Source of the DNA: Escherichia coli
GTDB taxonomy: Bacteria; Pseudomonadota; Gammaproteobacteria; Enterobacterales; Enterobacteriaceae
Length of the DNA stretch: 64,000 nucleotides
Strand: one strand, 5' to 3'
NCBI RefSeq assembly: GCF_003018255.1
Contig: NZ_CP027440.1
Positions 1 to 61,930 of the stretch are shown piece by piece (the first letter of the stretch is position 1; each line of letters begins with the position of its first letter). Made by a program: the position numbers and the translations under genes. A model generated the notes under the pieces. The model ran no database searches, was not told where the DNA came from, and saw only the letters and a list, made by a program, of their open reading frames with translations.

Positions 1-79
1 CCGGAATGCACTGAAAGGACCGATTACTGCGCTGGCGGAAGATCTGGCGCAACTTCGCGGTGTGCTGGGGCTGGACTAA
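1..79 (+). CDS. efeO: 3' end of efeO (periplasmic iron-uptake protein), partial; stop TAA at 77-79
   Basis: Open frame ending ...[15 protein letters not shown] directly upstream of efeB; matches the EfeO C-terminus from memory. Confidence 0.6.
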
Positions 80-84
80 GCGTT

Positions 85-1356
85 ATGCAGTATGAAGATG
101 AAAACGGCGTGAATGAACCGTCACGCCGACGTTTACTGAAAGGGATTGGTGCGCTGGCGCTGGCGGGAAGTTGTCCGGTCGCTCATGCACAAAAAACGCA
201 AAGTGCGCCGGGTACGCTTTCACCGGATGCACGCAATGAGAAACAGCCGTTTTATGGTGAGCATCAGGCAGGGATCCTGACGCCACAACAGGCTGCAATG
301 ATGCTGGTGGCGTTTGATGTGCTTGCCAGCGATAAAGCCGATCTTGAACGGTTGTTTCGCTTGTTGACTCAGCGTTTTGCTTTTCTGACTCAGGGCGGAG
401 CGGCACCAGAAACGCCAAATCCGCGCCTGCCACCACTCGATTCCGGCATTCTTGGCGGCTACATTGCGCCCGATAATCTCACCATAACGTTATCGGTGGG
501 CCACTCATTGTTTGATGAGCGCTTTGGCCTTGCGCCACAGATGCCGAAAAAGTTGCAGAAGATGACGCGTTTCCCCAACGACTCGCTGGATGCGGCGTTA
601 TGTCATGGTGATGTGTTGCTACAAATTTGCGCCAACACCCAGGACACGGTGATCCATGCGCTGCGCGATATCATCAAACACACGCCGGATTTGCTCAGCG
701 TGCGCTGGAAGCGGGAAGGGTTTATTTCCGACCACGCGGCGCGTAGTAAAGGTAAAGAGACACCGATTAATTTGCTGGGTTTCAAAGACGGCACTGCCAA
801 TCCCGATAGCCAGAATGCGAAGTTGATGCAAAAAGTGGTGTGGGTGACGGCAGATCAGCAGGAGCCTGCGTGGACAATCGGTGGTAGCTACCAGGCGGTG
901 CGGTTGATTCAGTTTCGGGTGGAATTTTGGGACAGAACGCCGCTGAAAGAACAGCAGACGATATTTGGGCGTGATAAGCAAACCGGCGCGCCGCTGGGAA
1001 TGCAGCATGAGCATGATGTGCCTGATTACGCCAGCGATCCGGAGGGGAAGGTGATCGCGCTGGACAGCCATATCCGGCTGGCGAATCCCCGCACGCCAGA
1101 GAGTGAGTCAAGTCTGATGCTGCGTCGTGGCTACAGTTATTCGTTGGGCGTCACCAATTCCGGGCAACTCGATATGGGGCTACTGTTTGTCTGCTACCAA
1201 CACGATCTGGAAAAGGGCTTCCTGACAGTACAAAAAAGGTTGAATGGAGAGGCGCTGGAGGAATATGTCAAACCTATCGGTGGCGGCTATTTCTTTGCGC
1301 TGCCGGGTGTGAAGGACGCGAACGATTATCTCGGAAGCGCATTATTGCGGGTTTAA
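85..1356 (+). CDS. efeB: Deferrochelatase / dye-decolorizing peroxidase EfeB, Tat-secreted
   Basis: 423-aa ORF; N-terminus has a twin-arginine signal ([17 protein letters not shown]...AHA); length matches EfeB. Confidence 0.95.
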
Positions 1357-1362
1357 TGTTTT

Positions 1363-1492
1363 TAGGCGGATAAGGCGTTTACGCCGCACCAGGCGTTCGT
1401 GCGCTGATGCGACGCTTGCGCGTCTTATCATGCCTACAATCGGTGCGGGTTCGGTAGGCCGGATAAGGCGTTCACGCCGCATCCGGCAAGCT
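1363..1492. repeat. REP/BIME cluster (repetitive extragenic palindromes)
   Basis: Several copies of the GCCGGATAAGGCGTTYACGCCGCATCCGGC-type palindromic unit in alternating orientation between efeB and phoH. Confidence 0.7.
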
Positions 1493-1539
1493 TTTACCAG
1501 TACTGCGAATCCTGCTGAAAGCACACAGCTTTTTTATCA

Positions 1540-1557
1540 CTGTCATCACTTTGTCAT
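1540..1557 (+). promoter_or_regulatory. Pho box (PhoB binding site) of the phoH promoter
   Basis: CTGTCAT-cact-TTGTCAT: two 7-bp direct repeats with 4-bp spacer, matching the PhoB box consensus, upstream of phoH. Confidence 0.6.
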
Positions 1558-1981
1558 CTTTCCAGTAGAAACTAATGTCACTGAAATGGTGTTTTATGGT
1601 TAAATATAAGTGAATATATTGTTGCAATGAATGCGAGATCTGGTGTAATTATTAAGTAGCAGCGGAAGTTCCCGGCAGTGATAGTCAGTCACTATGGAGA
1701 TCGCGGATGGTAACGTCCTGTACTGGACAATGTTTTGTTAAGCAAGGCTCCACCACTCGCGGAGATTTCTCCTCCGGTAGCAACTTCGTCACTCTGTATT
1801 TTTCTCACTTCCTCTCTTTACTCGTGTTACCGACGCCGCAAACGGTGTGCGTAGCCGTTTTTCGGCATTTTATCCAAAAGCAAACTATGGCTTACAAGGA
1901 AGCCAACCCTCTGATGTTCGTGCGCATAATCGCGCTGCCAACGGCGCGTGTGATGAATACAAACAACTCAAGGTGCTCTCC

Positions 1982-2770
1982 ATGGGAAGACAAAAAGCAG
2001 TGATCAAAGCTCGTCGCGAGGCAAAACGTGTGCTGAGACGGGATTCGCGCAGCCATAAGCAGCGTGAAGAAGAATCGGTCACCTCGCTTGTGCAAATGAG
2101 CGGCGTAGAAGCCATTGGTATGGCCCGCGATAGTCGCGATACCTCGCCCATCCTCGCGCGAAATGAAGCGCAATTGCACTATCTGAAGGCTATTGAGAGT
2201 AAGCAGCTGATATTCGCCACGGGCGAAGCCGGGTGCGGAAAAACCTGGATCAGCGCAGCAAAAGCGGCAGAGGCCCTGATACATAAGGATGTCGACAGGA
2301 TTATCGTCACCCGTCCAGTTCTGCAAGCCGATGAAGATCTTGGCTTCTTACCTGGTGATATCGCAGAAAAGTTTGCTCCCTATTTTCGCCCGGTCTACGA
2401 CGTGCTGGTTCGGCGCTTAGGGGCTTCCTTTATGCAGTACTGCCTGCGACCGGAAATAGGGAAGGTGGAAATTGCGCCGTTCGCCTATATGCGTGGACGT
2501 ACCTTTGAAAATGCAGTCGTCATTCTTGACGAGGCGCAGAATGTGACTGCCGCGCAAATGAAAATGTTTTTAACCCGCCTCGGGGAGAACGTGACGGTTA
2601 TCGTCAACGGTGATATCACGCAATGCGATTTGCCTCGCGGCGTGCGCTCCGGATTAAGTGACGCGCTGGAACGTTTCGAAGAAGATGAAATGGTCGGGAT
2701 CGTCCGATTCGGTAAAGAGAATTGCGTACGTTCGGCACTTTGCCAACGTACGCTACATGCATACAGTTAA
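1982..2770 (+). CDS. phoH: Phosphate-starvation-inducible ATPase PhoH (start uncertain; see findings)
   Basis: Walker A motif GEAGCGKT and PhoH-family core; ATG at 1982 preceded by AAGG. The ORF track opens at GTG 1847 in the same frame; a separate upstream ORF (ATG 1707) is in another frame. Confidence 0.85.
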   Translation: MGRQKAVIKARREAKRVLRRDSRSHKQREEESVTSLVQMSGVEAIGMARDSRDTSPILARNEAQLHYLKAIESKQLIFATGEAGCGKTWISAAKAAEALIHKDVDRIIVTRPVLQADEDLGFLPGDIAEKFAPYFRPVYDVLVRRLGASFMQYCLRPEIGKVEIAPFAYMRGRTFENAVVILDEAQNVTAAQMKMFLTRLGENVTVIVNGDITQCDLPRGVRSGLSDALERFEEDEMVGIVRFGKENCVRSALCQRTLHAYS

Positions 2771-2819
2771 GTGTATTATCGGCGCAGAGCCCGGGCGAAC
2801 CGGGCTTTGTTTTGGGTGT

Positions 2820-3233
2820 TTATACCCGGACTAGCGTTTTTTCTGAAACCACCATTTTTATTTGTCCCTGACTGGTGAAGTGTACGCTCATCCTGTGGCT
2901 TTTTTGTAGTTGCTGATAAAGCTCATCAGGTATTGCTAAGCTCTCTGCATATTCTTGCGGCGTATATTGGTATGCTGCATGATGCTGCTGTTTTTTAAAA
3001 CGCAGCTTATTGTACAATGCCCAGACGATTAACACGACGGCATTCGCCACTGCCAGCAAAAAATAGAACTGAAGTCGGCTTCTGGCCTCGCTTTGCCAGT
3101 AATAACCCGTCAGCAGATCAATGGCGAATAAGAATATGAACAAAGCAAATAATGTCCACAAGATGGTTGTGGCAACATAATCAACCAGTAAACGTACTGG
3201 CGATTGTCGGGTCGTAATAATTAGATTGTTCAT
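2820..3233 (-). CDS. pgaD: PGA biosynthesis protein PgaD
   Basis: 137-aa membrane protein immediately downstream of pgaC; length and sequence match PgaD. Confidence 0.9.
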
Positions 3234-3234
3234 A

Positions 3235-4560
3235 TTAACCTCTCAGAATCCCACGATCGGGACTTACCCAACGAGCGCGTTGTTTTTTAGGCATCAACAT
3301 GACTCGTGTAAATGATACCAATGTCGTTGCCAGGCTTAGCATCCAGAAAATAACCGGAAACCAAATAATCCAGAAAAGCGATGAAGCCAGATTGTGCTCA
3401 TAGCGATTCTCAATTACCAGACTGACAATAAATTGCAGTAAACATAACGTGCACAATAATATTCCGGCAGTATGTGTCGCTGCGATATGTGTCAATTCAA
3501 TATTTAACGGTACACCTGCAAGTTGGACTGCGTAAATAATGAAACCGACCAGGCAGGTAAAGGCCCATATTGTCGTCAGGCAGTATTCAAAAAACAGTGG
3601 CCACATTCGAAAGTTTTCTTTTCGCCACAACCTTGTCATATTTTTGAGGAATACTTCTGCACCGCCCTGAGCCCAGCGCAGGCGCTGTTTCCACAGCCCT
3701 TTTAACGTTTCAGGCATTAATATCCAGCACAGCGCCCGTGGCTCGTAAAAAATCGTCCACTGATTCAACTGCAGCTTCCAGCTAATATCAATATCTTCGG
3801 TGATCATATCGTCACTCCAGTAACCCACTTCTGCCAGGGCGCTGCGACGAAATGCGGCAATAACACCGGAAACGGTAAATACATTTCCATAGATACGCTG
3901 GGTCCGCTTGATCAAACCAATAATTGAGGAATACTCGCCAACCTGAATTTTACCCACTAGGGTAGAACGTGTGCGAATACGAGGATTACCGGTTACGGCA
4001 CCCACACGTGGGTTGTACAACATCGGTTCCACAATATATGCCGCTGCATCGCGGTCTAATAACGCGTCGCCATCAATGCACACCAGATATTCACTTTTCG
4101 CCGCGGCAGCTCCGGTTTTAAGCGCAATGGCTTTCCCCTGGTTTTGCGCCAGATGAATGACCCGCAGACGGGGAATTTGTGCAGCCATGCGATCCAGGAT
4201 GGCACGGGTTTTGTCTGTTGAACCATCATTTACGGCAATAACTTCAATGTTCTCATAACGCTGTGCTAAAGCGGCATGTATGGTTTCCTCAACGTTTTTC
4301 TCCTCATTAAAACAGGGAATGATAATGGAGATAGATGGATTATCTTTCAACTGGGGGGCTGGTGCGTTTTCTCCCCACGGCCAGTGGCGTTCACGATAGA
4401 CCCAGAAATAGACGCCGCCAATAATCCACATAATGGACATAAAAAACGGCCAGAAGAAAACGAACCTCATCATCAGTTCACCAGAGTGAAAGTACGCTAC
4501 GCATAGAGGTATGCATAACACCAGACATAATATAAAAAACGATACGATGCGATTAATCAT
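3235..4560 (-). CDS. pgaC: Poly-beta-1,6-N-acetylglucosamine synthase PgaC (GT2 glycosyltransferase)
   Basis: 441-aa ORF with GT2 motifs ([23 protein letters not shown]). Confidence 0.95.
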
Positions 4561-6571
4561 TTTTCGGATACCAGGCTGTTGAAAACTCAGGACGAATAAC
4601 GTCTATTTCAGGTTGGTTATGCAGAAAATTGTCGGGATAATAACCATAATTTTTCACTCCATTCAGTTGTAATAGGCTCATCCAGTGAGCGAGTTGTTGT
4701 GAAGAAATAGCCTGATGCTGACCATTTTTCTGCCAGTTTTGTGCCTGTAATTCTAAAATTGATTTGTCTTTAGCCTGCGGGATGCTTTTCATCTGATTGG
4801 TCAATTGTGTTAACCATTGATCAGCCGATTTTTCTGTGACGCCTTCCATATAAGGCATAGCCATAATAGCGGTCCAGTCATAGCTTTTTAGGAAATCAGC
4901 ATAATTCTGTGCAAACCAAGCTTCACTTTCAGGTTGTATTACCGGAAGTGCAAAAATATTTCGTGCAGTTTTAACATGTGGACCACGAATGGCTTTTACG
5001 CGCGCACTAAGTTCTAAAGTGAAGTCAGTTAACGCACGACTTTTAAAGCGGGTCCACTGTTTGAATTGCTCCGGGTTTTGTCGAATTTCGCTCAGACTCC
5101 CGCTAAAGCCAGCTTGCTGATAAGCCGCGATAGCCGCTGCACTGGCATCTTCATAATCTGAAAGCAAAGCATCATCGTGGAACAATATGCCATCAAAAGC
5201 AGCATGTCCGGCAAGATCATCATATAACATGCCAACTTGTGCTCTGACCCTGTCATCGAAAGGGGAGAGACGGCGGTATTGTTCAGGATGAATTTGTGCT
5301 TTTTTCTCCCCAGTTGGTAAGTATTTTACTCGCGTTAATGTGGGATCTAAATCCCAGCTTAATACCGGCATCCACGCATAGATGTTTACACCTGAGCGGG
5401 TACGCAATTGCCAGGCAACCCGACTAAAAATATCTGCTTTCATTGGTAGCAAACGATTTGGAAACCAGACCTCTTTAACCAGCCCATCACCATCGGGATC
5501 AGCAAATGCTTGTAAATACACGGTAGATATTTGCATATCTTTTACCCTCTGAATTAGCACATCAATATTGCGATCCATTTGCTGGCGGTTTTCGTCATAA
5601 ATGTAATCAAGATCGATATGCATTACCCGTTGTAGTGGTTTTTCCTGTACGGTAATAATTTGCTGGGCAAACTCTTTTAATGAGGGATTATTGGCGATTA
5701 ATACTCGCGGAATGGAATCTAATTGCGACGCATTTGCCAAACCTGATTCAAGGGTGAAGAACATGTCATAACCGAGTTTTTTTAATTCCGCGATTGCTAT
5801 GCCATTCGCTTCGCCATAAGGCCAAACAAAAACGTGTGGATTTACCTCAGCCTTTGTACGCAGGTATTCCGTCATTTTTACAGCATCCAGACGAATTCTT
5901 TCCCGGTATTCTGCTGCGGTTTCATACCGTGCGTGGTCAGTAAAATATGCACGATTTACATATACAGGCAATAAGCTGCCGGTGGCATTAGCCTGAATAC
6001 CGTAGTGAGAATTCCATGTATGAGAAGCGACCTCAACGAGCCGGGAACGCGCAACTTCTCGCACTTGTTGCCACGTGGCAAAATATTCTCGACTGACCAT
6101 CTCATCGCCAAATTTTACTTGTTCATCCGCTGGCGTATCGACCCAACTGCCGACGGGGGCCCATACAGCAGGCCACTGGAAGGCCTGAAGAATTGGGAAG
6201 ACGCGGGTATAAAAACTCTGGTAGCCGTCATCAAAAGTCAGCACTACTGCTTTTTCCGGTAGCGGTTTTCCTCCTCGATGTGCTTCACGAATTTGAGCAA
6301 TACTGACCGGTTGATAACCGTTCTCGCGCAGCCAGGCAAATTGTTCACGCAGTGCTGATGTCCGCACTGACATAAAACGCTGGTCGGCAGCTTCGTCTTC
6401 AACGTTATGCCATGAAATCGCCACAAAACCATTATGCGGCCACGGTTGCTCGGCGAGTAAAGATTCGCGATCCTGTGGCGGTATAAATGATGTTCTTGAC
6501 TGGCTAATGCACGCAGTGAGCATAATTATACTCACCAGCATCAGGATATATTTATTTCCATTACGTAACAT
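4553..6571 (-). CDS. pgaB: PGA N-deacetylase lipoprotein PgaB
   Basis: 672-aa ORF with lipoprotein signal (LTAC) and polysaccharide deacetylase region; overlaps pgaC start by 8 nt. Confidence 0.95.
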
Positions 6572-6579
6572 ATTTATCC

Positions 6580-9003
6580 TTAAAATCTGAATGTCATATC
6601 GAATTCAACGTATAAGTTGTGTTCTCTGTCACCGTCATAAGGTCGTTTTTCCCAGCGTAGCGTTGCGCCAGCATCAATCACGTCATTCCAGCTAATACGT
6701 TGCCCGTAGCCGAGTTGGGTGACGACATCCGTGCCATAATGTTTTTGCCAGGAGGCACCAACACCTGCGCTGAAGATTTGCTCCCAGCTATTTTCATAGC
6801 TTCGCCATAACAAATGACTTGCCTCAAATGCCGGAACAATATCGAACGTTTTTATAGGGTTGTAGTATGGAGTGTCGTGTTCTGTATTTTGTTCGTAATA
6901 CAGATTGGGTAGGAAATCGACAATCAAATATGGTGAAGACCAGATGCGTTCCTGACCCTCAAGTGAGACTTCCTGACGCTGGTTACTGTCGGAAAAATCA
7001 GTGAAAGCCCAGGAGACACCGTACTTACGCCGCTCATTTTGATACCAGCGAACATAAGCCTGAGCACTGTTGCCTGTAACACCATTTTTCATTGCCCGTA
7101 ATGGAACGCGGTGAGAGAGGCGTTCCAGTTGCGAACCAATACGCCAGTTATCATTAAAATCATACCAGCCAGACAGGCGCGCGCCGGGTTTATGCTCATG
7201 ATTGAAAACGCGTTCAGCGTACTCCGCCTCGAGCCAGATATTACGTGACCGCCACTCAACACCCGCCAGCCAGTCGCGAACAATCCCTTTTCCTTCGCTA
7301 AATTGTCCATCGGCATAACCGAATCCAGCAAAACCGCGCCAGTTATCCTTCAGCGGTGGTGAATAAACGATGGTGGTTAAGTCGACATCATGTTTACCAC
7401 TATCCGGGCCTTCGGCATCAATTCCTGTTGAACCAGCTATACGAAGCTCTGCAAGATTATGTACATCAACCGCACGTTTTAAACGTACAACGCCGGGATC
7501 TTGCGGTTCACGTTCGACAACATCGTGCGTTAAGACAGCTGCCTGCTGCCATTCTTGTAACGTTAATGCTGTCCATGCTTGTTCAACCTCCAGATTAATA
7601 TTACGTGGCTCGATCACTTCTGCTTTTTTTAATTCATTTTCTGCTGCACGAGGCCAACCGCGGGCTTGTAACACACTCGCGTAATCAATGCGCAGTCCCT
7701 GATTTCCTGGTGCGTTATAAGCAAGCTCTCTGGCTATCATTTCAGCCTGAGGAAGATCATTACTATATTTTGCTACGGTTGAGAGAAACGAATGCCCCTG
7801 TAACCAGGTATCATTCGGGATGCTCGTAGGCGTGCCCATTAACCGAAGGAAAGGCGGCGAAGTATTAATGGTATGTTGGGTGACAGTTAGCGCGCCGGGA
7901 TAATTTTCACTCTCCAGGTGGCTGTAAAAGAGATCCGCAAGTTCTTCATCGGATAAATCCGGGGCAATGGTCTCCTTGTGATAAAAGAGCTCTGTCATTA
8001 TTGACTGTGCTTTTTTTGGCTGCTGTTCTTTGAGATAAGCCGACGCAACCCAATATTGCGCCCAGGGCGGAATAATTTGCCTCGTATTTTTTAAACGCTG
8101 ATAGTGAGAAATAACGTCTTTATAACGATCGCGAGTTAATAACGCGCCAAGATGATCAACCTGAATACGCTGGTACTGGGCAGTGCGGTCTGAGTTATCG
8201 TGCCACAGAATTTCTAATGCAGCGTATTGGGCGAGGGCGCGATCGGCAATGGCATAACGTTCACTTTCACTGCGCGTAGGCATAAACGACAGTCTGATCA
8301 GTTCGGCATGAATATCAGCGCGAATATCTGGCGTTAAATTGGCATCGTCAATCGCGGCAGCTAGTTGATTATTACGTAATGCCTGCACGTATTCTGTGGG
8401 ATATTGTTGCTTAGATGCATTTTCAGGTAATGACTCTGTCATCGCCCGTAATTCATCCTGATGACGCCCCGTCAGTTTATAGATATAGGCTTCTGCGAGT
8501 AAATTGGCTTTGTCCGGCGCTCCAGATTTAAGCTGCTTAAGTTTAACCAGCGCAGTATCATAGTGACCCGCATCTGCCAGGGTTAAAATTTGTCCCCGTT
8601 GATAATCCTTATTTTGCGGCTCCAGAGAGAGCGCCTTTTGCCACAGTGTAAGCGAGTTTTGCCATTGTTGCAGGTTACGATAAGCGACGGCGACAGCTGC
8701 ATAACCACGCGCTGGTAATTGCTGATGACGGTAGCGGCTGTAAACGGTAATGACCTGTTTATCTTGCCCGGCCCATAAGGCAATTTGTAACCAGTCAGCA
8801 ATTTGGTTATTACTGAGTGTTGATTTTTGTGCAAACCATGACAAAGCTGGCTGAGTATTTCCTTTGCGAGCTTCAATAATCAATGCATCATAGGCGTTAT
8901 TAACAGCACTCTTCGCCGCGGGACTCGCTGCTAAAAATGCGGCAGTAAGAAGTTTCAAAGCCCATTTGGTTTTCGGGCACCTTTTTCTGCTACTTGAATA
9001 CAT
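6580..9003 (-). CDS. pgaA: PGA outer-membrane export porin PgaA (TPR plus beta-barrel)
   Basis: 807-aa ORF with signal peptide; length and sequence match PgaA. Confidence 0.95.
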   Translation of the reverse strand: MYSSSRKRCPKTKWALKLLTAAFLAASPAAKSAVNNAYDALIIEARKGNTQPALSWFAQKSTLSNNQIADWLQIALWAGQDKQVITVYSRYRHQQLPARGYAAVAVAYRNLQQWQNSLTLWQKALSLEPQNKDYQRGQILTLADAGHYDTALVKLKQLKSGAPDKANLLAEAYIYKLTGRHQDELRAMTESLPENASKQQYPTEYVQALRNNQLAAAIDDANLTPDIRADIHAELIRLSFMPTRSESERYAIADRALAQYAALEILWHDNSDRTAQYQRIQVDHLGALLTRDRYKDVISHYQRLKNTRQIIPPWAQYWVASAYLKEQQPKKAQSIMTELFYHKETIAPDLSDEELADLFYSHLESENYPGALTVTQHTINTSPPFLRLMGTPTSIPNDTWLQGHSFLSTVAKYSNDLPQAEMIARELAYNAPGNQGLRIDYASVLQARGWPRAAENELKKAEVIEPRNINLEVEQAWTALTLQEWQQAAVLTHDVVEREPQDPGVVRLKRAVDVHNLAELRIAGSTGIDAEGPDSGKHDVDLTTIVYSPPLKDNWRGFAGFGYADGQFSEGKGIVRDWLAGVEWRSRNIWLEAEYAERVFNHEHKPGARLSGWYDFNDNWRIGSQLERLSHRVPLRAMKNGVTGNSAQAYVRWYQNERRKYGVSWAFTDFSDSNQRQEVSLEGQERIWSSPYLIVDFLPNLYYEQNTEHDTPYYNPIKTFDIVPAFEASHLLWRSYENSWEQIFSAGVGASWQKHYGTDVVTQLGYGQRISWNDVIDAGATLRWEKRPYDGDREHNLYVEFDMTFRF

Positions 9004-9237
9004 CCTGTATTACTCCATGTATTGCCAAAATCTCTCTCTATATCTAATTACAGGTAACTGAAAAGAAAGATATTTTTGCATCTCATAATCCGTTATTAAA
9101 CGCGGAAGAGACACGTGAATTGTTGATGATGAGAAGAAGAAATGATGAGCAGATTGTCCATATAAAATCCTTTTCTCGCCCGAAAATCCATTCCAATGAT
9201 GAGGATCTTCAGGAATACGGCATAAATCCCAATGCCT
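9004..9237 (-). promoter_or_regulatory. pgaA 5' leader with multiple GGA motifs (CsrA-binding leader)
   Basis: AT-rich untranslated region upstream of the pgaA start with at least six GGA motifs on the transcribed strand, one adjacent to the start codon (GGATG). Confidence 0.5.
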
Positions 9238-9590
9238 TTTTCAAAATAAATTAGGATTAAAATAATTAAATCAGTAAATTCCGATGCATAATTTCGGATT
9301 TTTCGAAAGTCCTGATGAAAGGCAGCGCTACTGCACTCACGAATTTAATTGTTATTCCTAATGTATCTATTAATTAATGCTTTATAAGGATTTTATTATA
9401 ATCCTTTATAAGTATTTGCAAGCCTGCCTTGCAGCAAAAAATGTATAAAGCATTAAAGTGATAATAATTACATTCTGCAACTATCATCATCGGTATTGTT
9501 TGTGGGTGGATTTTCATATTGACAACAGTACAGTTCTTATATCTATTAATAATAAAAAGGGATCTACAACCTACAGGTTGGTGTAGCTTT

Positions 9591-10958
9591 ATGGAAAAAG
9601 ACTATTTGGGAATTAGTAGTACTGTATTAGTGAGCTTATTGTTTGGGCTTGCATTGGTTTTGGTTAATAGTTGGTTCAATCAGCCAACCGTTGAGGAAGT
9701 TGTTCCACGATCAACCTATCTGATGGTTATGATTGCTTTATTTTTTATCGATACTGTTGCATTTATTTTTATGCAGTTGTATTTCATTTATGACCGTAGG
9801 CAATTTTCAAACTGTATACTTAGTTTGGCTTTTCTAAGTTGTTTGATTTACTTTATTAAAACCGTCATTATCATTCAGCAAATTATTGAGGGGCGTTTGA
9901 CAAGCAGTGTTGTTCAAAATGACATTGCAATTTATTATTTGTTTCGTCAGATGAGTTTGTGCGTATTAATATTTCTGGCATTGGTAAATAAAGTTAGTGA
10001 AAACACAAAACAGCGCAATTTGTTTTCCAAAAAAGTGACTTTGTGCATAACTTTGTTTTTTGTTCTTGGGGGGCCGATAGTTGCTCACATATTTTCTAGC
10101 CATTATGAGAGCTACGATTTACACATTGCCGAGTTAACCAATAAAAATGGTCAGGTGGTTTGGAAAGCCTCATATGTTACCATAATGATTTTCATGTGGT
10201 TAACCTTGCTTTCGGTTAATCTATACTTTAATGGTTTACGCTGTGATATCTGGAACGGGGTGTCGGTGATTGCTTTTTGTGCCGTGCTGTACAATATCTC
10301 TCTGTTATTTATGAGCAGGTATAGCGTGTCCATTTGGTATATTAGTCGCACTATTGAAGTAGTCAGTAAGTTAACCGTTTTGGTAATTTTTATGTGCCAT
10401 ATATTCAGTGCGCTACGAGTAACAAAGGACATTGCACATCGCGATCCCTTAACCAATATATTTAACAGAAATTATTTTTTTAATGAACTGACGGTTCAAT
10501 CAGCATCGGCCAAAAAAAAACCTTATTGCGTCATGATTATGGATATTGACCACTTCAAAAAAGTCAACGACACCTGGGGACATCCGGTTGGCGATCAAGT
10601 GATAAAGACAGTGGTGAATATCATTGGGAAAAGCATACGACCAGATGACCTTTTAGCGCGCGTTGGCGGCGAAGAGTTTGGCGTCTTGCTGACGGAGATC
10701 GATACTGAATGTGCGAAAGCTTTAGCGGAAAGGATTCGGGAAAATGTTGAACGTTTAACTGGCGATAATCCTGAATACGCCATACCACAAAAAGTGACAA
10801 TTAGTATTGGCGCTGTTGTAACGCAGAAAAATGAGTTAAACCCTAAGGAGATCTATCAACTGGCTGATAACGCACTTTACGAGGCGAAAGAGACCGGGCG
10901 TAATAAGGTGGTAGTAAAAGAGGCAGAAATTCTTATCAACCGCAAGGATGATGAATGA
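9591..10958 (+). CDS. dgcT: Membrane-anchored diguanylate cyclase (GGDEF) YcdT/DgcT
   Basis: Multi-TM N-terminal half plus C-terminal GGDEF domain (RVGGEEFGVLL); start placed at ATG 9591 (MEKDYLGISS), downstream of the ORF-track start. Confidence 0.85.
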   Translation: MEKDYLGISSTVLVSLLFGLALVLVNSWFNQPTVEEVVPRSTYLMVMIALFFIDTVAFIFMQLYFIYDRRQFSNCILSLAFLSCLIYFIKTVIIIQQIIEGRLTSSVVQNDIAIYYLFRQMSLCVLIFLALVNKVSENTKQRNLFSKKVTLCITLFFVLGGPIVAHIFSSHYESYDLHIAELTNKNGQVVWKASYVTIMIFMWLTLLSVNLYFNGLRCDIWNGVSVIAFCAVLYNISLLFMSRYSVSIWYISRTIEVVSKLTVLVIFMCHIFSALRVTKDIAHRDPLTNIFNRNYFFNELTVQSASAKKKPYCVMIMDIDHFKKVNDTWGHPVGDQVIKTVVNIIGKSIRPDDLLARVGGEEFGVLLTEIDTECAKALAERIRENVERLTGDNPEYAIPQKVTISIGAVVTQKNELNPKEIYQLADNALYEAKETGRNKVVVKEAEILINRKDDE

Positions 10959-11020
10959 GTCTGTCGCTAGTTGTCGACCTCCGCCTGGGGCTTCTCATCC
11001 CCCAGTGTGTGAAATATACG

Positions 11021-11048
11021 AAAAAAAGCTCGCACTTTCGTACGAGCT
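11021..11048 (-). terminator. Intrinsic terminator downstream of serX
   Basis: Hairpin AGCTCG...CGAGCT followed by a U-run on the minus strand, just 3' of the tRNA. Confidence 0.45.
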
Positions 11049-11060
11049 CTTCTTTAAATA

Positions 11061-11148
11061 TGGCGGTGAGGGGGGGATTCGAACCCCCGATACGTTGCCG
11101 TATACACACTTTCCAGGCGTGCTCCTTCAGCCACTCGGACACCTCACC
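11061..11148 (-). tRNA. serX: tRNA-Ser (anticodon GGA), encoded CCA, long variable arm
   Basis: Reverse complement reads GGTGAGGTGTCCGAGTGGCTGAAGGAGCACGCCTGGAAAGTGTG...GGTTCGAATCCCCCCCTCACCGCCA; anticodon loop CUGGAAA gives anticodon GGA. Confidence 0.93.
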
Positions 11149-11182
11149 AAATTGTCGTTCCTGTCTTGCTGGAACGGGCGCT

Positions 11183-11211
11183 AATTTAGGGAAATCATGA
11201 CCTGAGGTCAA
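11183..11211 (-). promoter_or_regulatory. Putative sigma70 promoter of serX
   Basis: TTGACC - 17 nt - TAAATT on the minus strand, followed by a GC-rich discriminator, about 30 nt upstream of the mature tRNA 5' end. Confidence 0.5.
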
Positions 11212-11329
11212 CAAACTTTTTTAAAAAATCGCTCGATTATTCAAACTTCAATCAATATGCAGTTTTAATAAGCGAAATTTGCTTTTTTTGCCACCGACCA
11301 CGGATTTGTTATGCTGCTGGTCTTTGTAG

Positions 11330-31393: not shown

Positions 31394-31969
31394 TTACTTC
31401 TGCTGTACGCCTTCCACTGAAATAATCAGATCCACTTCCTGAGAAGCTGGACCTAAATCTGTCTTGATATTGAAGTCCTTGAGCTTAATTTTGCCTTCGG
31501 CCTCGAAGCCTGCACGTTTACCACCCCATGGGTCGTCGCCCTGACCAATTAATTTCGCTTCCAGCGTGACGGGTTTGGTTACGCCATTCAGCGTCAGATC
31601 GCCGGTAATATCCAGTTCGTCACCGTCTTTCTTCACGCTGGTGGAGGTGAATGTTGCCTGTGGATATTTTGCAGTATTGAGGAAATCTGCACTGCGAAGA
31701 TGTTTATCGCGTTCGGCGTGATTAGTATCGACGCTGGTGGTGTTAATTGTCACATTCACTTTATCGGCAGCTGGATTTTTTTCATCAAAGGTAAAAGTAC
31801 CGTCGAAATCTTTAAAGGTGCCGTATAACCAGCTATAGCCAAGGTGCTGTATGCGGAAGTTAACAAAGGCGTGCTGACCTTCTTTGTCAATTTTGTAATC
31901 GGCGGCAACCGCTGAACCGGCAGAGAACATCAGGGAAGCGAAGGTTAAACCAAGCAGGCTTTTTTTCAT
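31394..31969 (-). CDS. yceI: Periplasmic polyisoprenoid-binding protein YceI
   Basis: 191-aa ORF with signal peptide; matches YceI. Confidence 0.9.
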
Positions 31970-31972
31970 TTT

Positions 31973-32539
31973 TTATACTCCATAGTCAGATGACGACTTT
32001 CCCAGCATGCGCTTCAGAGTGTCGTCTTTATCGATGAAATGATGCTTCAGGGCCATAAATCCGTGCATAACGGACAGTACTACGACGCTCCACGCGAGCC
32101 AAAAATGCAGGGCACCGGCAAAGTCAGCCTGTGCGCCAGCGTCGGCGAGGGTCGCGGGGACGTCAAACCAGCCAAAAACGCTGATCGGTTTACCATCGGC
32201 AGTTGAGATCAGATAGCCGCTGATGCCGATGGCGAACAGCAATAAGTACAATGCGAGATGTCCAGCCTTTGCGCCAAGACGAGTCATGGGCGAATAACTC
32301 TGCAGCGGACCCGGCGGTGGAGATATGACGCGCCACAGAACGCGAATAACCAGCCCCATCATTAACAAAATACCGATGCTTTTATGCAGTTCGGGTGCCT
32401 GGTGATACCAGCCATCGTAATAACTGAGCGTGACCATCCACAGACCTAAAGCAAACATGCCGTAGACAATAATTGCGCTTAGCCAATGGAAGGCCGCAGA
32501 TATAACACCATAGCGTTCAGGGGTATTTGTGAATGACAT
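31973..32539 (-). CDS. yceJ: Cytochrome b561 homolog YceJ
   Basis: 188-aa membrane protein from ATG at 32539 (MSFTNTPERYGVISAAFHW...). Confidence 0.88.
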   Translation of the reverse strand: MSFTNTPERYGVISAAFHWLSAIIVYGMFALGLWMVTLSYYDGWYHQAPELHKSIGILLMMGLVIRVLWRVISPPPGPLQSYSPMTRLGAKAGHLALYLLLFAIGISGYLISTADGKPISVFGWFDVPATLADAGAQADFAGALHFWLAWSVVVLSVMHGFMALKHHFIDKDDTLKRMLGKSSSDYGV

Positions 32540-32799
32540 AAGTGCATCCAAAACGACTTTGCGAGAGAAAGAAAATGGCGTGTCGGAGAATGAATTGCAA
32601 CACAAAAATAACAATTTGAATGATATTTATTTTTATTTCAATAATTTTGAATTAATAATGAAAGAATCTTCATAAGTTTAGTGGGTTCAGCATCAGAGAT
32701 GTCTGGTGAGTGCTGTTGAAGCAGGAATAATCTCATTCAATTTTTCACGCTAAATGAAAGGGAGATTAAATATTTGTCAGTTTATGTCAGTGCGGAAAA

Positions 32800-32940
32800 C
32801 TAAAAATAATACACATAGATCAGATCCATAATTGCCAACAATCCCCAGAGAAAAAGATAAAGCATCAGATGCTCGCGAATATTATTGATGAGATAGTGCA
32901 ACAGCCGACGCATTAAATACTCCTGTAAAAACGGCCTCAT
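32800..32940 (-). CDS. yceO: Small membrane protein YceO (46 aa)
   Basis: Minus-strand [49 protein letters not shown]; below the ORF-track length cutoff, matches YceO. Confidence 0.6.
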
Positions 32941-32960
32941 TCTGGAGGCCGTAATGATGA

Positions 32961-34079
32961 TTATTGGAAGCGGGAAAGCCTGAATGGCGTCAAATCAAAA
33001 TCGCTTTTTTTGTCTTGCGCAAAATCGGCAGCTATTTCCCCTAAAACTGACGCAAATTTAAAACCGTGCCCACTCAGGCCGGTAATGAGCAGTGTATTAT
33101 CGTGGCCGGGTAGGGTATCGATAATAAAATCTTCGTCAGGCGAATTATCATAGGTGCAGGCGGCGCCGTACAGGCAGCAACCGATACCCGGCAATACATT
33201 GCGCAAGAACGGGAAGGCTTCCGAACCATCGCTGACCACTTCCGCAAACGGAACACGTTCATCCGCTGAATGGATAACCTGGCCTCCGTTATGTTTGCCA
33301 ATCTTCAACGCGTCGTTTTCTGCCGGAAAACCATAATATTGATCGCCATTGGGAAGTTCACCGGTAAACGCCGGGAATTTATTCTTCACGCTATAGCGCC
33401 CATCGGCCTGATACCAGGCAAATACTTTGCGTACGGGCTGGACAGGCAACTCCGGGAGCAGGTCTTTTACCCATGTTCCCGCGCAGACAATCGCTTTTTT
33501 CGCCTGATACTCACCGTCAGCCGTTTCAATAGTTACGCCATCATCGTCATGACGAATTGCGGTGACCGGGCAGTTGAACAGCTGCGCACAGCCCGCTTCC
33601 TTCGCCAGTTGGATCCAGGTTTTAATCGCCAGTTCGCTGCGTAAAAAGCCGGAATCAGTCTCAAATAAGCCGATGTAGTTGTCCGGGACGCGTATTTCAG
33701 GCCAGCGGGCCATAATCCCTTGCGCATCGAGCTTTTCAACGTTGAGTTGCCATTGTTCGGCGCTGTGGGCGACGTTGGCGAGAAATGTGGAATCAGCCGG
33801 GCCAAGGTTAATGACGCCAGAGCGTACAAAAATGGGATCTTCTTCGTTGTGGCGGGAGAGTTCATCCCACAGCGTTTGCGCGCGGAGAACCAGCGGGACA
33901 TACTTTTCGCCTTCACCATAAGCATGGCGAATTAATCGCGTATCGCCGTGGTGGCTGCCGTGTTGATGCGGTGGCATATGGGCGTCGGTCATTAGCACGT
34001 TTAAACCGGCACGGGTTGCATAATACCCGGCGGCAGCGCCTACGGAACCGCTGCCAATAATGATGAGATCGTATTTCAT
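32961..34079 (-). CDS. solA: N-methyl-L-tryptophan oxidase SolA (FAD-dependent)
   Basis: 372-aa ORF with N-terminal FAD-binding GxGxxG ([14 protein letters not shown]). Confidence 0.93.
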
Positions 34080-34193
34080 TTTTTTCTCTCTGCTCTCATG
34101 GTTTAAGCAGAGTAATTAACTGAATGCAGATATACAACCCAGAAATGGTAAAGGCACCGGTGAGGTGCCTTTTGGGTGGATGGTCATGTCATG

Positions 34194-34448
34194 TTAATGA
34201 CGCCGATACTCGTTTACCGGGAAATCACCGGATTCAATTTTGGCGATTCCTGCTTCTAATATCGAAATAAATTGTCTGGCAACATCAGTGGTTAACCAGA
34301 GCGTCTGACCAACTTCAGTCCCTTCCTGCTCGGACTTATTTGGGGTCTGGTAGTGCAAACGCAACATCAGCGCATCATAGCTATCAACGGTGCTGATGTC
34401 CCACCCTACGAGCGGATGAGTCTGAATGACTTCATTATTTTTTTCCAT
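34194..34448 (-). CDS. bssS: Biofilm regulator BssS
   Basis: 84-aa product (MEKNNEVIQTHPLVGWDIST...). Confidence 0.9.
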   Translation of the reverse strand: MEKNNEVIQTHPLVGWDISTVDSYDALMLRLHYQTPNKSEQEGTEVGQTLWLTTDVARQFISILEAGIAKIESGDFPVNEYRRH

Positions 34449-34737
34449 CATGGCCCCCTAATTCGTGTTACTAGACAACGTTATTCGAGGTTCAATGCGT
34501 TTTTATCTGAAGCAACTTCAGTATACCAATAAGTAAGGGTATTCACCGAATTTTTAAAGGGGGGAACAGATAAATTTTTGCTTTTAAGATTTATATGAAC
34601 AATAAAACAGCATGTCATTCATATTTTTTTAGCATATTGTGCAATTATTTTGAGGAAGTGTAGAAATTTTGTACTCACAATTCGCAAGTAAAATAAAAAA
34701 GCCGGGGCGACCCGGCAAAAACAAAAATCACTGCATA

Positions 34738-34983
34738 TTATTCGCTGACAAACCAGTCATCGGCGCTTTCCCACGTTTCCTGGAGAATTTCGCTAATGCG
34801 CTGTTTATCTTCTTTTGTCGCGCCAATAACCGATAAATTATTCGCTGCGGCATAACGTACCGATACGTGGCCTTCATTATCAGGAAACGCATACTGAATA
34901 CGGCGGGAAAGTTCGCCAGCCAGGGCGTCAATAGCCCCAGCTGGCAATGGAGAAGTTTTCGCTATGGTGACTTCAATTCGCAT
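34738..34983 (-). CDS. dinI: DNA damage-inducible protein DinI
   Basis: 81-aa product from ATG at 34983 (MRIEVTIAKTSPLPAGAIDAL...). Confidence 0.9.
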   Translation of the reverse strand: MRIEVTIAKTSPLPAGAIDALAGELSRRIQYAFPDNEGHVSVRYAAANNLSVIGATKEDKQRISEILQETWESADDWFVSE

Positions 34984-54572: not shown

Positions 54573-55357
<785 letters not shown>

Positions 55358-61664: not shown

Positions 61665-61849
<185 letters not shown>

Positions 61850-61930
61850 ATCACGCGTCTGCGTGATGAAGCTTAGTGAGGATTTTCCCCAGGCAACTGG
61901 GGAAAGACCAAACCGGGCGGCGACGATACC

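Follow-up and report, generated by a model that had tools for sequence, protein, structure and literature searches.

Genomic context and identity of yceO

The window that we analyzed is a 64,000-nt stretch of Escherichia coli DNA in which, on the minus strand between yceJ and solA, an ATG-initiated open reading frame of 46 codons occupies positions 32800..32940. Its upstream neighbor is solA (32961..34079, minus strand), which encodes N-methyl-L-tryptophan oxidase of the DAO family, while the cytochrome b561 family gene yceJ (31973..32539, minus strand) lies downstream, an arrangement found in some lineages only; both flanking annotations were taken from a RefSeq strain that is 100% identical to the window over 32500-33100. 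The reading frame had been pointed out in a preliminary description of this DNA, and the translation in the ORF list of the window is identical to the peptide given there. The two in-frame ATG codons that the same description recorded can both be seen in the sequence, at 32940-32938 (residue 1, hereafter ATG1) and at 32913-32911 (residue 10, hereafter ATG2). The coding sequence that we favor starts at ATG2 and comprises 37 codons followed by a TAG stop (32800..32913, minus strand).

The proposed match to YceO was borne out by several comparisons. The encoded peptide differs from the K-12 protein b1058 by one residue, a tyrosine in the window in place of Phe44 of K-12 (98% identity), and it matches the Pfam family PF10968 (DUF2770) with a score of 77.6 bits against a family cutoff of 25 (E=6.7e-22). 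In this match, positions 1-36 of the 36-position model align with residues 10-45 of the 46-residue reading frame. A search against NCBIfam returned no match for the peptide at E<=1, which does not disqualify the assignment, since the PGAP pipeline still names the product "YceO family protein" or "DUF2770 family protein". A megablast search with positions 32500-33100 retrieved the region from 5424 of 5426 complete E. coli genomes, in which the annotation everywhere reads solA, a YceO (or DUF2770) family protein, and yceJ. The reading frame in the window is thus the known and catalogued small membrane-protein gene yceO (b1058), located at its usual place between solA and yceJ. The annotations disagree on its length: the curated K-12 record (NC_000913.3) lists a 141-nt gene encoding 46 aa from ATG1, while PGAP annotates a 114-nt coding sequence in other strains, corresponding to 37 aa from ATG2. 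On the minus strand of NC_000913.3, ATG1 and ATG2 fall at positions 1119447 and 1119420, respectively.

Although yceO is indeed absent from the track of open reading frames in which it had been described as missed, this reflects only the 60-aa display cutoff of that track, and annotations of the gene exist for K-12 and across RefSeq. The same cutoff hides rpmF, for which the expected 57-aa reading frame was found at 61677..61850 on the plus strand. The further suggestion that other genes of fewer than 60 codons may be concealed in the intergenic gaps found no support in current annotation, as PGAP and the curated K-12 annotation list only yceO and rpmF below this length in the part of the window (approximately 11.3-64 kb) that is collinear with strain DETEC-S792. 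Upstream of approximately 11.3 kb, the two sequences differ. There, positions 1-11300 are wholly unlike the otherwise near-identical DETEC-S792, in which an Ag43/CbtA-YeeU island lies beside tRNA-Ser, and this part of the window is a strain-variable island region. Elsewhere in the window, a GNAT-family acetyltransferase and a DUF1778 protein form a toxin-antitoxin-like gene pair between flgL and rne (about 54573-55357, minus strand), a position occupied in K-12 by just about 195 nt and the FlgO sRNA.

yceO is a conserved protein-coding gene

Scanning a collection of genomes with a profile for the 37-aa core identified 27 loci, which belong to Escherichia spp., Huaxiibacter, Lelliottia, Enterobacter, Leclercia, Siccibacter, Silvania, and Buttiauxella. 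Among 26 sequences of equal length from several genera, the entropy at the three codon positions was 0.68, 0.22, and 1.17, respectively, so that variation is concentrated at the third position. The summed pairwise pN/pS over 26 loci was 0.26 in the yceO frame, while the two shifted frames gave 0.83 and 2.44. In a DNA alignment covering the interval between the end of solA and the beginning of yceJ, conservation sets in at the ATG2 column and ceases at the stop codon. The family is small, as an exhaustive HMMER search of 1.84 billion representative sequences returned only 59 relatives, and all those that we inspected possess the core NN(I/V)REH(L/F)M(L/I)Y and an aspartate in the transmembrane segment. 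The frame is therefore conserved in related genomes, with its 37-codon length kept, and yceO is a genuine, vertically inherited Enterobacteriaceae coding gene under purifying selection.

Published protein data point in the same direction. In a study from the Storz laboratory, an immunoblot revealed very small amounts of a chromosomal YceO-SPA fusion, lower than those from the induced plasmid by a factor of at least 10,000, and YceO is marked "+" (detected) in top-down mass spectrometry (PMC12529367).

The codon-position pattern and the published immunoblot together exclude a chance reading frame, and they bear equally on the proposal that a non-coding element is being conserved here, either a long leader or regulatory region of yceJ-yceI or a hairpin followed by a U-run within codons 14-22. 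Such an element might be suspected from the conserved non-coding blocks in the spacer downstream of yceO and from the terminator scanner, which flagged GAGCAT-N3-ATGCTC with a T-run inside the reading frame in two loci of other genera (L010 and L011). However, the low pN/pS is confined to the yceO frame, both the length and the position of the stop codon are kept, and no significant Rfam match was found within 31800-34800. Moreover, the internal hairpin, at codons 14-18, has 4.82 pairs compared with 4.17 expected from the E-H-x-M-L codons themselves, and it is lost in divergent members of the family. We consider the non-coding reading extremely unlikely, since the immunoblot and the codon-position pattern in effect rule it out. 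The internal hairpin is present in the window as well, as GAGCAT-N3-ATGCT(T/C) followed by a T-rich run at 32857-32871 (minus strand, codons 14-22), corresponding to positions 2540-2554 in both L010 and L011. RNA structure was considered as the cause of the REHLML conservation and set aside, because synonymous shuffles showed this hairpin to be mostly a by-product of the codons.

Within E. coli, yceO alleles display an in-frame length polymorphism of a CTTTAT/CTTTTT hexanucleotide at 32851-32862 (minus strand, codons 18-21 of the 37-aa form), which gives rise to the variants MLYLW, MLYLFLW, MLYLYLFLW, and MLYLYLYLFLW. Several yceO alleles in the databases have frameshifted C-termini.

A GC-rich hairpin separates solA from yceO

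A GC-rich hairpin begins 8 nt past the stop codon of solA (TAA, 32963-32961); it was identified in the minimum free energy fold as ACGGCCUC-CAGAAU-GAGGCCGU with a subsequent U-run (32927..32952, minus strand). The stem comprises 8 bp, of which 6 are GC pairs, and is followed by the tail UUUUUA; the folding energy is -14.0 kcal/mol, and 0 of 300 dinucleotide shuffles were as good. ATG1 lies across this structure, with its A and U in the loop and its G as the first base of the 3' arm.

In 25 of 28 loci, an equivalent hairpin occupies the stretch between the stop codon of solA and the ATG of yceO, and its stem sequence is lineage-specific. The stems include GGCCTC/GAGGCC, GGCTCCG/CGGAGCC, GGCTTCGG/CCGAAGCC, CCCCGGC/GCCGGGG, and CGGCCCCG/CGGGGCCG, most of them with T-rich tails, and the hairpin is likewise present in five further divergent loci (L034, L035, L040, L041, and L042). 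In 27 of the 28 loci with an intergenic gap, at most 2.7% of dinucleotide-preserving shuffles were as good as the native sequence, with a median of 0. In Buttiauxella, no such hairpin is present, and the yceO ATG follows the solA stop codon at a distance of 7 nt.

A consensus terminator scanner called the orthologous hairpins of three other genera (L010, L011, and L016) terminator-like and did not call the hairpin of the window, probably because the E. coli stem is extended by an A-U pair that leaves only four U in the tail. Searches for literature on the solA terminator or on DUF2770 yielded nothing useful, and the supplementary 3'-end tables of PMC7815308 contain no entry for yceO and no RNA 3' end at the hairpin junction; expression of solA may be too low for 3'-end detection. 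The same tables do list a 3' end inside solA, at K-12 position 1120419 (about 33912 in the window, minus strand), approximately 170 nt into the gene, which suggests premature termination that would further lower any read-through into yceO.

The hairpin is best read as the intrinsic terminator of solA, and we take it to be of moderate strength in E. coli and probably leaky. Operons with leaky terminators show a comparable layout of a GC-rich stem (6-13 bp in the yceO loci) and a T-rich tail positioned just past the upstream stop codon, with a downstream Shine-Dalgarno sequence (4-30 nt past the hairpin in the yceO loci) and a structure that is kept while the stem sequence changes. The Buttiauxella locus departs from this layout in having no hairpin, and the E. 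coli hairpin differs from a typical Rho-independent terminator in that its tail contains no more than five U, one of which is paired, and in escaping the consensus scan.

The second ATG is favored as the start codon of yceO

That the choice between the two starts was ambiguous, as stated in the preliminary description, follows from the presence of two in-frame ATG codons; the ambiguity is now largely resolved toward ATG2. When the conservation of both starts was compared, ATG2 (32913) was found as ATG in 28 of 28 loci from at least eight genera, with a 37-aa product in 26 of them. ATG1, by comparison, occurs in only four of seven Escherichia lineages, and in other genera it is missing or cut off by stop codons. 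ATG2 is preceded at a distance of 6 nt by the Shine-Dalgarno sequence AGGAG (32920..32924, minus strand), whose duplex with the 3' end of 16S rRNA reaches -6.9 kcal/mol in E. coli and ranks among the best 1.3% when 2000 positions of the locus are compared; in several other genera the corresponding duplex is weak (-3 to about 0 kcal/mol). The start favored by PGAP and the first position of the Pfam model coincide with this codon.

The alternative is that the 46-aa protein from ATG1, the form used in the curated K-12 reference NC_000913.3 and in the UniProt model, is the real E. coli product or a substantial second product, with a lineage-specific N-terminal extension of nine codons (MRPFLQEYL, 32914..32940, minus strand). 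Within Escherichia there is something to be said for it: the frame is open in all seven lineages with a pN/pS of about 0.34, below 1, the codon at position -9 is ATG in four of them and TTG in the other three, and the pattern MRPFLQ-x-x-L is mostly kept. Translation from ATG1 might perhaps result from re-initiation, if ribosomes finishing solA at its stop codon 20 nt upstream were to open the hairpin, and a terminating ribosome could indeed unfold a hairpin that begins just 8 nt from that stop. However, ATG1 (32940) has no Shine-Dalgarno sequence, its duplex energy of -1.7 kcal/mol being equal to the median of the locus, and the zone where such a sequence would be expected is 98% paired. The A and U of ATG1 are situated in the loop, which is the variable part of the hairpin (cagaat, taagtt, taaatt, aaa, and atca). 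Within Escherichia, the eight upstream codons have a pN of 0.082, fourfold that of the 37-codon core (0.022), and the conservation seen across the nine codons is explained by the hairpin arm, the U-run, and the Shine-Dalgarno sequence that they contain. Outside Escherichia, no conserved yceO extension was found: an in-frame stop lies 2-8 codons upstream in five loci, and the N-terminal extensions proposed by gene callers in other taxa share no similarity with one another.

The targeted tryptic peptide of YceO was observed solely when the 46-codon reading frame was supplied on a pBAD plasmid (PMC12529367). Since that plasmid supplies the longer frame itself, the peptide is uninformative on the native start.

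The comparative data, the strength of the Shine-Dalgarno sequence, the RNA structure, the boundary of the Pfam model, and the PGAP annotation thus agree in favoring the 37-aa start. The segment 32914..32940 is most likely an untranslated leader that overlaps the 3' arm of the hairpin, the U-run, and the Shine-Dalgarno sequence, and the length of 46 aa under which the gene was initially presented is probably wrong, the real product being the 37 residues from ATG2. We regard the 46-aa protein as an unlikely principal or substantial product; a minor 46-aa isoform in E. coli, where the upstream frame stays open, is similarly improbable. The calculated monoisotopic masses of the window allele are 4731.55 Da for the 37-aa form and 5909.14 Da for the 46-aa form, with formylation adding 27.99 Da, and the Phe44 allele of K-12 is lighter by about 16 Da.

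Synteny and transcription of yceO

In every locus that we examined, solA lies upstream of yceO on the same strand, regardless of whether yceJ-yceI are present. Downstream of yceO, yceJ is absent in loci L025, L026, L035, L036-38, and L041, and in L036-38 a single GerE-family gene is inserted between solA and yceO. Since the neighborhood pyrC-dinI-bssS-solA-yceO-(yceJ-yceI)-trhO-lpxL is syntenic as a whole, the adjacency of solA and yceO by itself argues for a functional link only weakly to moderately. In Enterobacter sp. EA-1 (L030; CP025776.1, 1400-2620), the solA sequence is distributed among three frames and yceO lacks 1 nt after NNV, with the downstream yceJ intact and aligning over its full length. 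This damage hints either at a co-decay of the solA-yceO pair or at indel errors in the assembly.

A search of the gene strand over 32400-33400, including the 490 nt upstream of yceO, revealed no match to a sigma-70-like promoter. Given this result and the position of yceO always directly behind solA, we infer that yceO is co-transcribed with solA and transcribed mainly by read-through of the moderate solA terminator. Such read-through would explain the very low level of YceO in LB.

The yceO-yceJ spacer (32540-32799) holds several conserved elements of its own. About 10 nt past the yceO stop codon (32775-32790, minus strand), CTGACAtaaaCTGACA forms a tandem direct repeat whose period is 10 nt and whose conserved form across genera is TTGACAttaaTTGACG. 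The spacer also contains the conserved blocks TCAAAAAnAnTGAAAtAAAA, GTTGCAATA, and CAcaGGCCATTTT, and its length is nearly invariant, since in many genera the distance from the yceO ATG to the start of yceJ is 375-377 nt. The spacer has no Rfam match, and from its sequence it looks like the promoter of yceJ-yceI or a putative binding site of the response-regulator type.

YceO is a predicted single-helix membrane protein

The product of ATG2 shows the pattern of its family, with a length of about 36-38 aa, an M-R-R start, the NN(I/V)REH(L/F)M(L/I)Y core, and an aspartate in the hydrophobic segment. The predicted transmembrane segment is encoded at 32803..32868 (minus strand), corresponding to codons 16-37 of the 37-aa form, and includes the invariant Asp30. 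Its hydropathy is of transmembrane grade, with a Kyte-Doolittle 19-residue maximum of 2.15 at residues 25-43 of the 46-aa form, and AlphaFold2, supplied with an alignment of 26 sequences, predicted a single continuous helix over residues 2-36 with a mean pLDDT of 93.9. The initial characterization of the product as a single-helix hydrophobic peptide is thereby upheld, and YceO, at 37 (or 46) aa and with one such helix, falls within the bounds of the small inner-membrane proteins (<=50 aa).

The segment preceding the hydrophobic stretch is amphipathic (muH 0.72), carries three Arg and two His residues, and includes the motif NN-I/V-R-E-H, while nothing follows the hydrophobic stretch at the C-terminus. 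By the positive-inside rule, YceO would adopt an N-in/C-out, tail-anchored topology with its basic N-terminal half in the cytoplasm. In the 26-sequence family alignment, Asn11, Arg13, and Asp30 are invariant, while Asn10, His15, Tyr19, and Tyr33 are at least 90% conserved. Conservation within residues 16-37 follows a 100-degree periodicity (permutation p=0.004), and the invariant and near-invariant residues His15, Tyr19, Leu22/Trp23, Leu26, Asp30, and Tyr33 line one face of the helix. Such a conserved, Asp-bearing face is the hallmark of a surface used for helix-helix packing. No YceO-like chain was found in the PDB, even at E<=10.

Being small, hydrophobic, and very weakly expressed in its native context, YceO could also be taken for a membrane-damaging peptide akin to type I toxins, silenced by RNA structure or by an antisense RNA, and in this respect it resembles the small hydrophobic single-helix peptides of the Hok, Ldr, Ibs, and TisB classes. 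One promoter-like site does lie on the opposite strand, at 32616-32645, but shuffled sequences give an expectation of 2.5 such sites; with no significant opposite-strand promoter and no Rfam match, no cis-encoded or adjacent antisense RNA is evident. Unlike the genes of these classes, yceO is a single-copy gene that is vertically inherited at a fixed syntenic position across genera, and its strongest conservation resides in the polar juxtamembrane motif and not in bulk hydrophobicity. Overexpression from pBAD for 2 h was tolerated, with no toxicity reported in the accessible text of PMC12529367. The harm reported for yceO stems from its loss rather than its gain: according to two papers citing Hobbs et al. 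2010, which place yceO among the acid-stress small proteins, the deletion is reported to be acid-sensitive, and this speaks for a beneficial function (PMC12997748, PMC8765455). On the grounds of synteny, copy number, and tolerance of overexpression, we rejected the toxin reading, which we hold to be very improbable.

A closer likeness exists to the characterized small single-transmembrane regulators of E. coli, namely AcrZ, MgtS, MgrB, CydX, and KdpF. With these, YceO shares a length of at most 50 aa, one predicted transmembrane helix, low or conditional expression, and detection by means of an SPA tag, and its conserved helical face suggests packing with a larger protein, as in AcrZ-type regulators. 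It differs from them in having no detectable sequence similarity to any of the five and no YceO-like chain in solved complexes, in a transmembrane segment that reaches the very C-terminus, and in a conservation maximum formed by the juxtamembrane NN-I/V-R-E-H motif and the membrane-embedded Asp. AcrZ, MgtS, and CydX/CydH are likewise mentioned in PMC12529367.

Discussion

The short reading frame between yceJ and solA was correctly matched to yceO in the preliminary description, an ordinary finding on an already known gene, to which the sole addition is the refinement of the start codon, with ATG1 placed inside the probable solA terminator hairpin. Taken as a whole, the explanation that we consider probable begins from a real gene with a conserved start, a hairpin in front of it, a helix with a conserved face, and a constant linkage to solA. 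To these observations it adds a terminator function for the hairpin, transcriptional read-through, a membrane topology, and the binding of a partner, all of which we infer. According to this explanation, a 37-residue inner-membrane YceO with a single helix would be translated from ATG2 by way of its own AGGAG Shine-Dalgarno sequence, and the nine upstream "codons" would represent the 3' half of the GC-rich hairpin, the U-run, and that Shine-Dalgarno sequence, the hairpin itself acting as the intrinsic terminator of solA. The yceO mRNA would arise mainly from transcripts that pass this terminator, leading to a very low protein level. YceO would then serve as a small accessory or regulatory subunit that uses its conserved face to bind a larger membrane protein or to associate with other copies of YceO, and it may contribute to survival of acid shock.

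The invariant gene order also raises the question of whether YceO is the dedicated membrane partner of the flavoenzyme SolA, with solA and yceO forming an obligate gene pair that is kept even where yceJ-yceI have been lost. We deem this quite unlikely, the evidence for it being the gene order only. Were it true, the leaky terminator, or the direct coupling seen in Buttiauxella, would set the expression ratio of SolA to YceO, and the cytoplasmic NN-R-E-H segment would dock SolA at the inner membrane. The invariant transmembrane Asp would then have a proton-linked or partner-binding role, and SolA would be tied to the reported acid-shock phenotype of yceO mutants.

There is a well-supported argument that the curated K-12 and UniProt model of 46 aa starts nine codons too early. 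The choice of start affects the design of tagged or synthetic constructs as well as the targets for mass spectrometry, and both the published pBAD construct and the targeted peptide assume 46 aa. Beyond such annotation hygiene the outcome matters little, as yceO is catalogued and its protein has been detected experimentally. For the function of this acid-stress protein, the pairing of solA with yceO and the polar helical face with its membrane-embedded Asp provide starting points.
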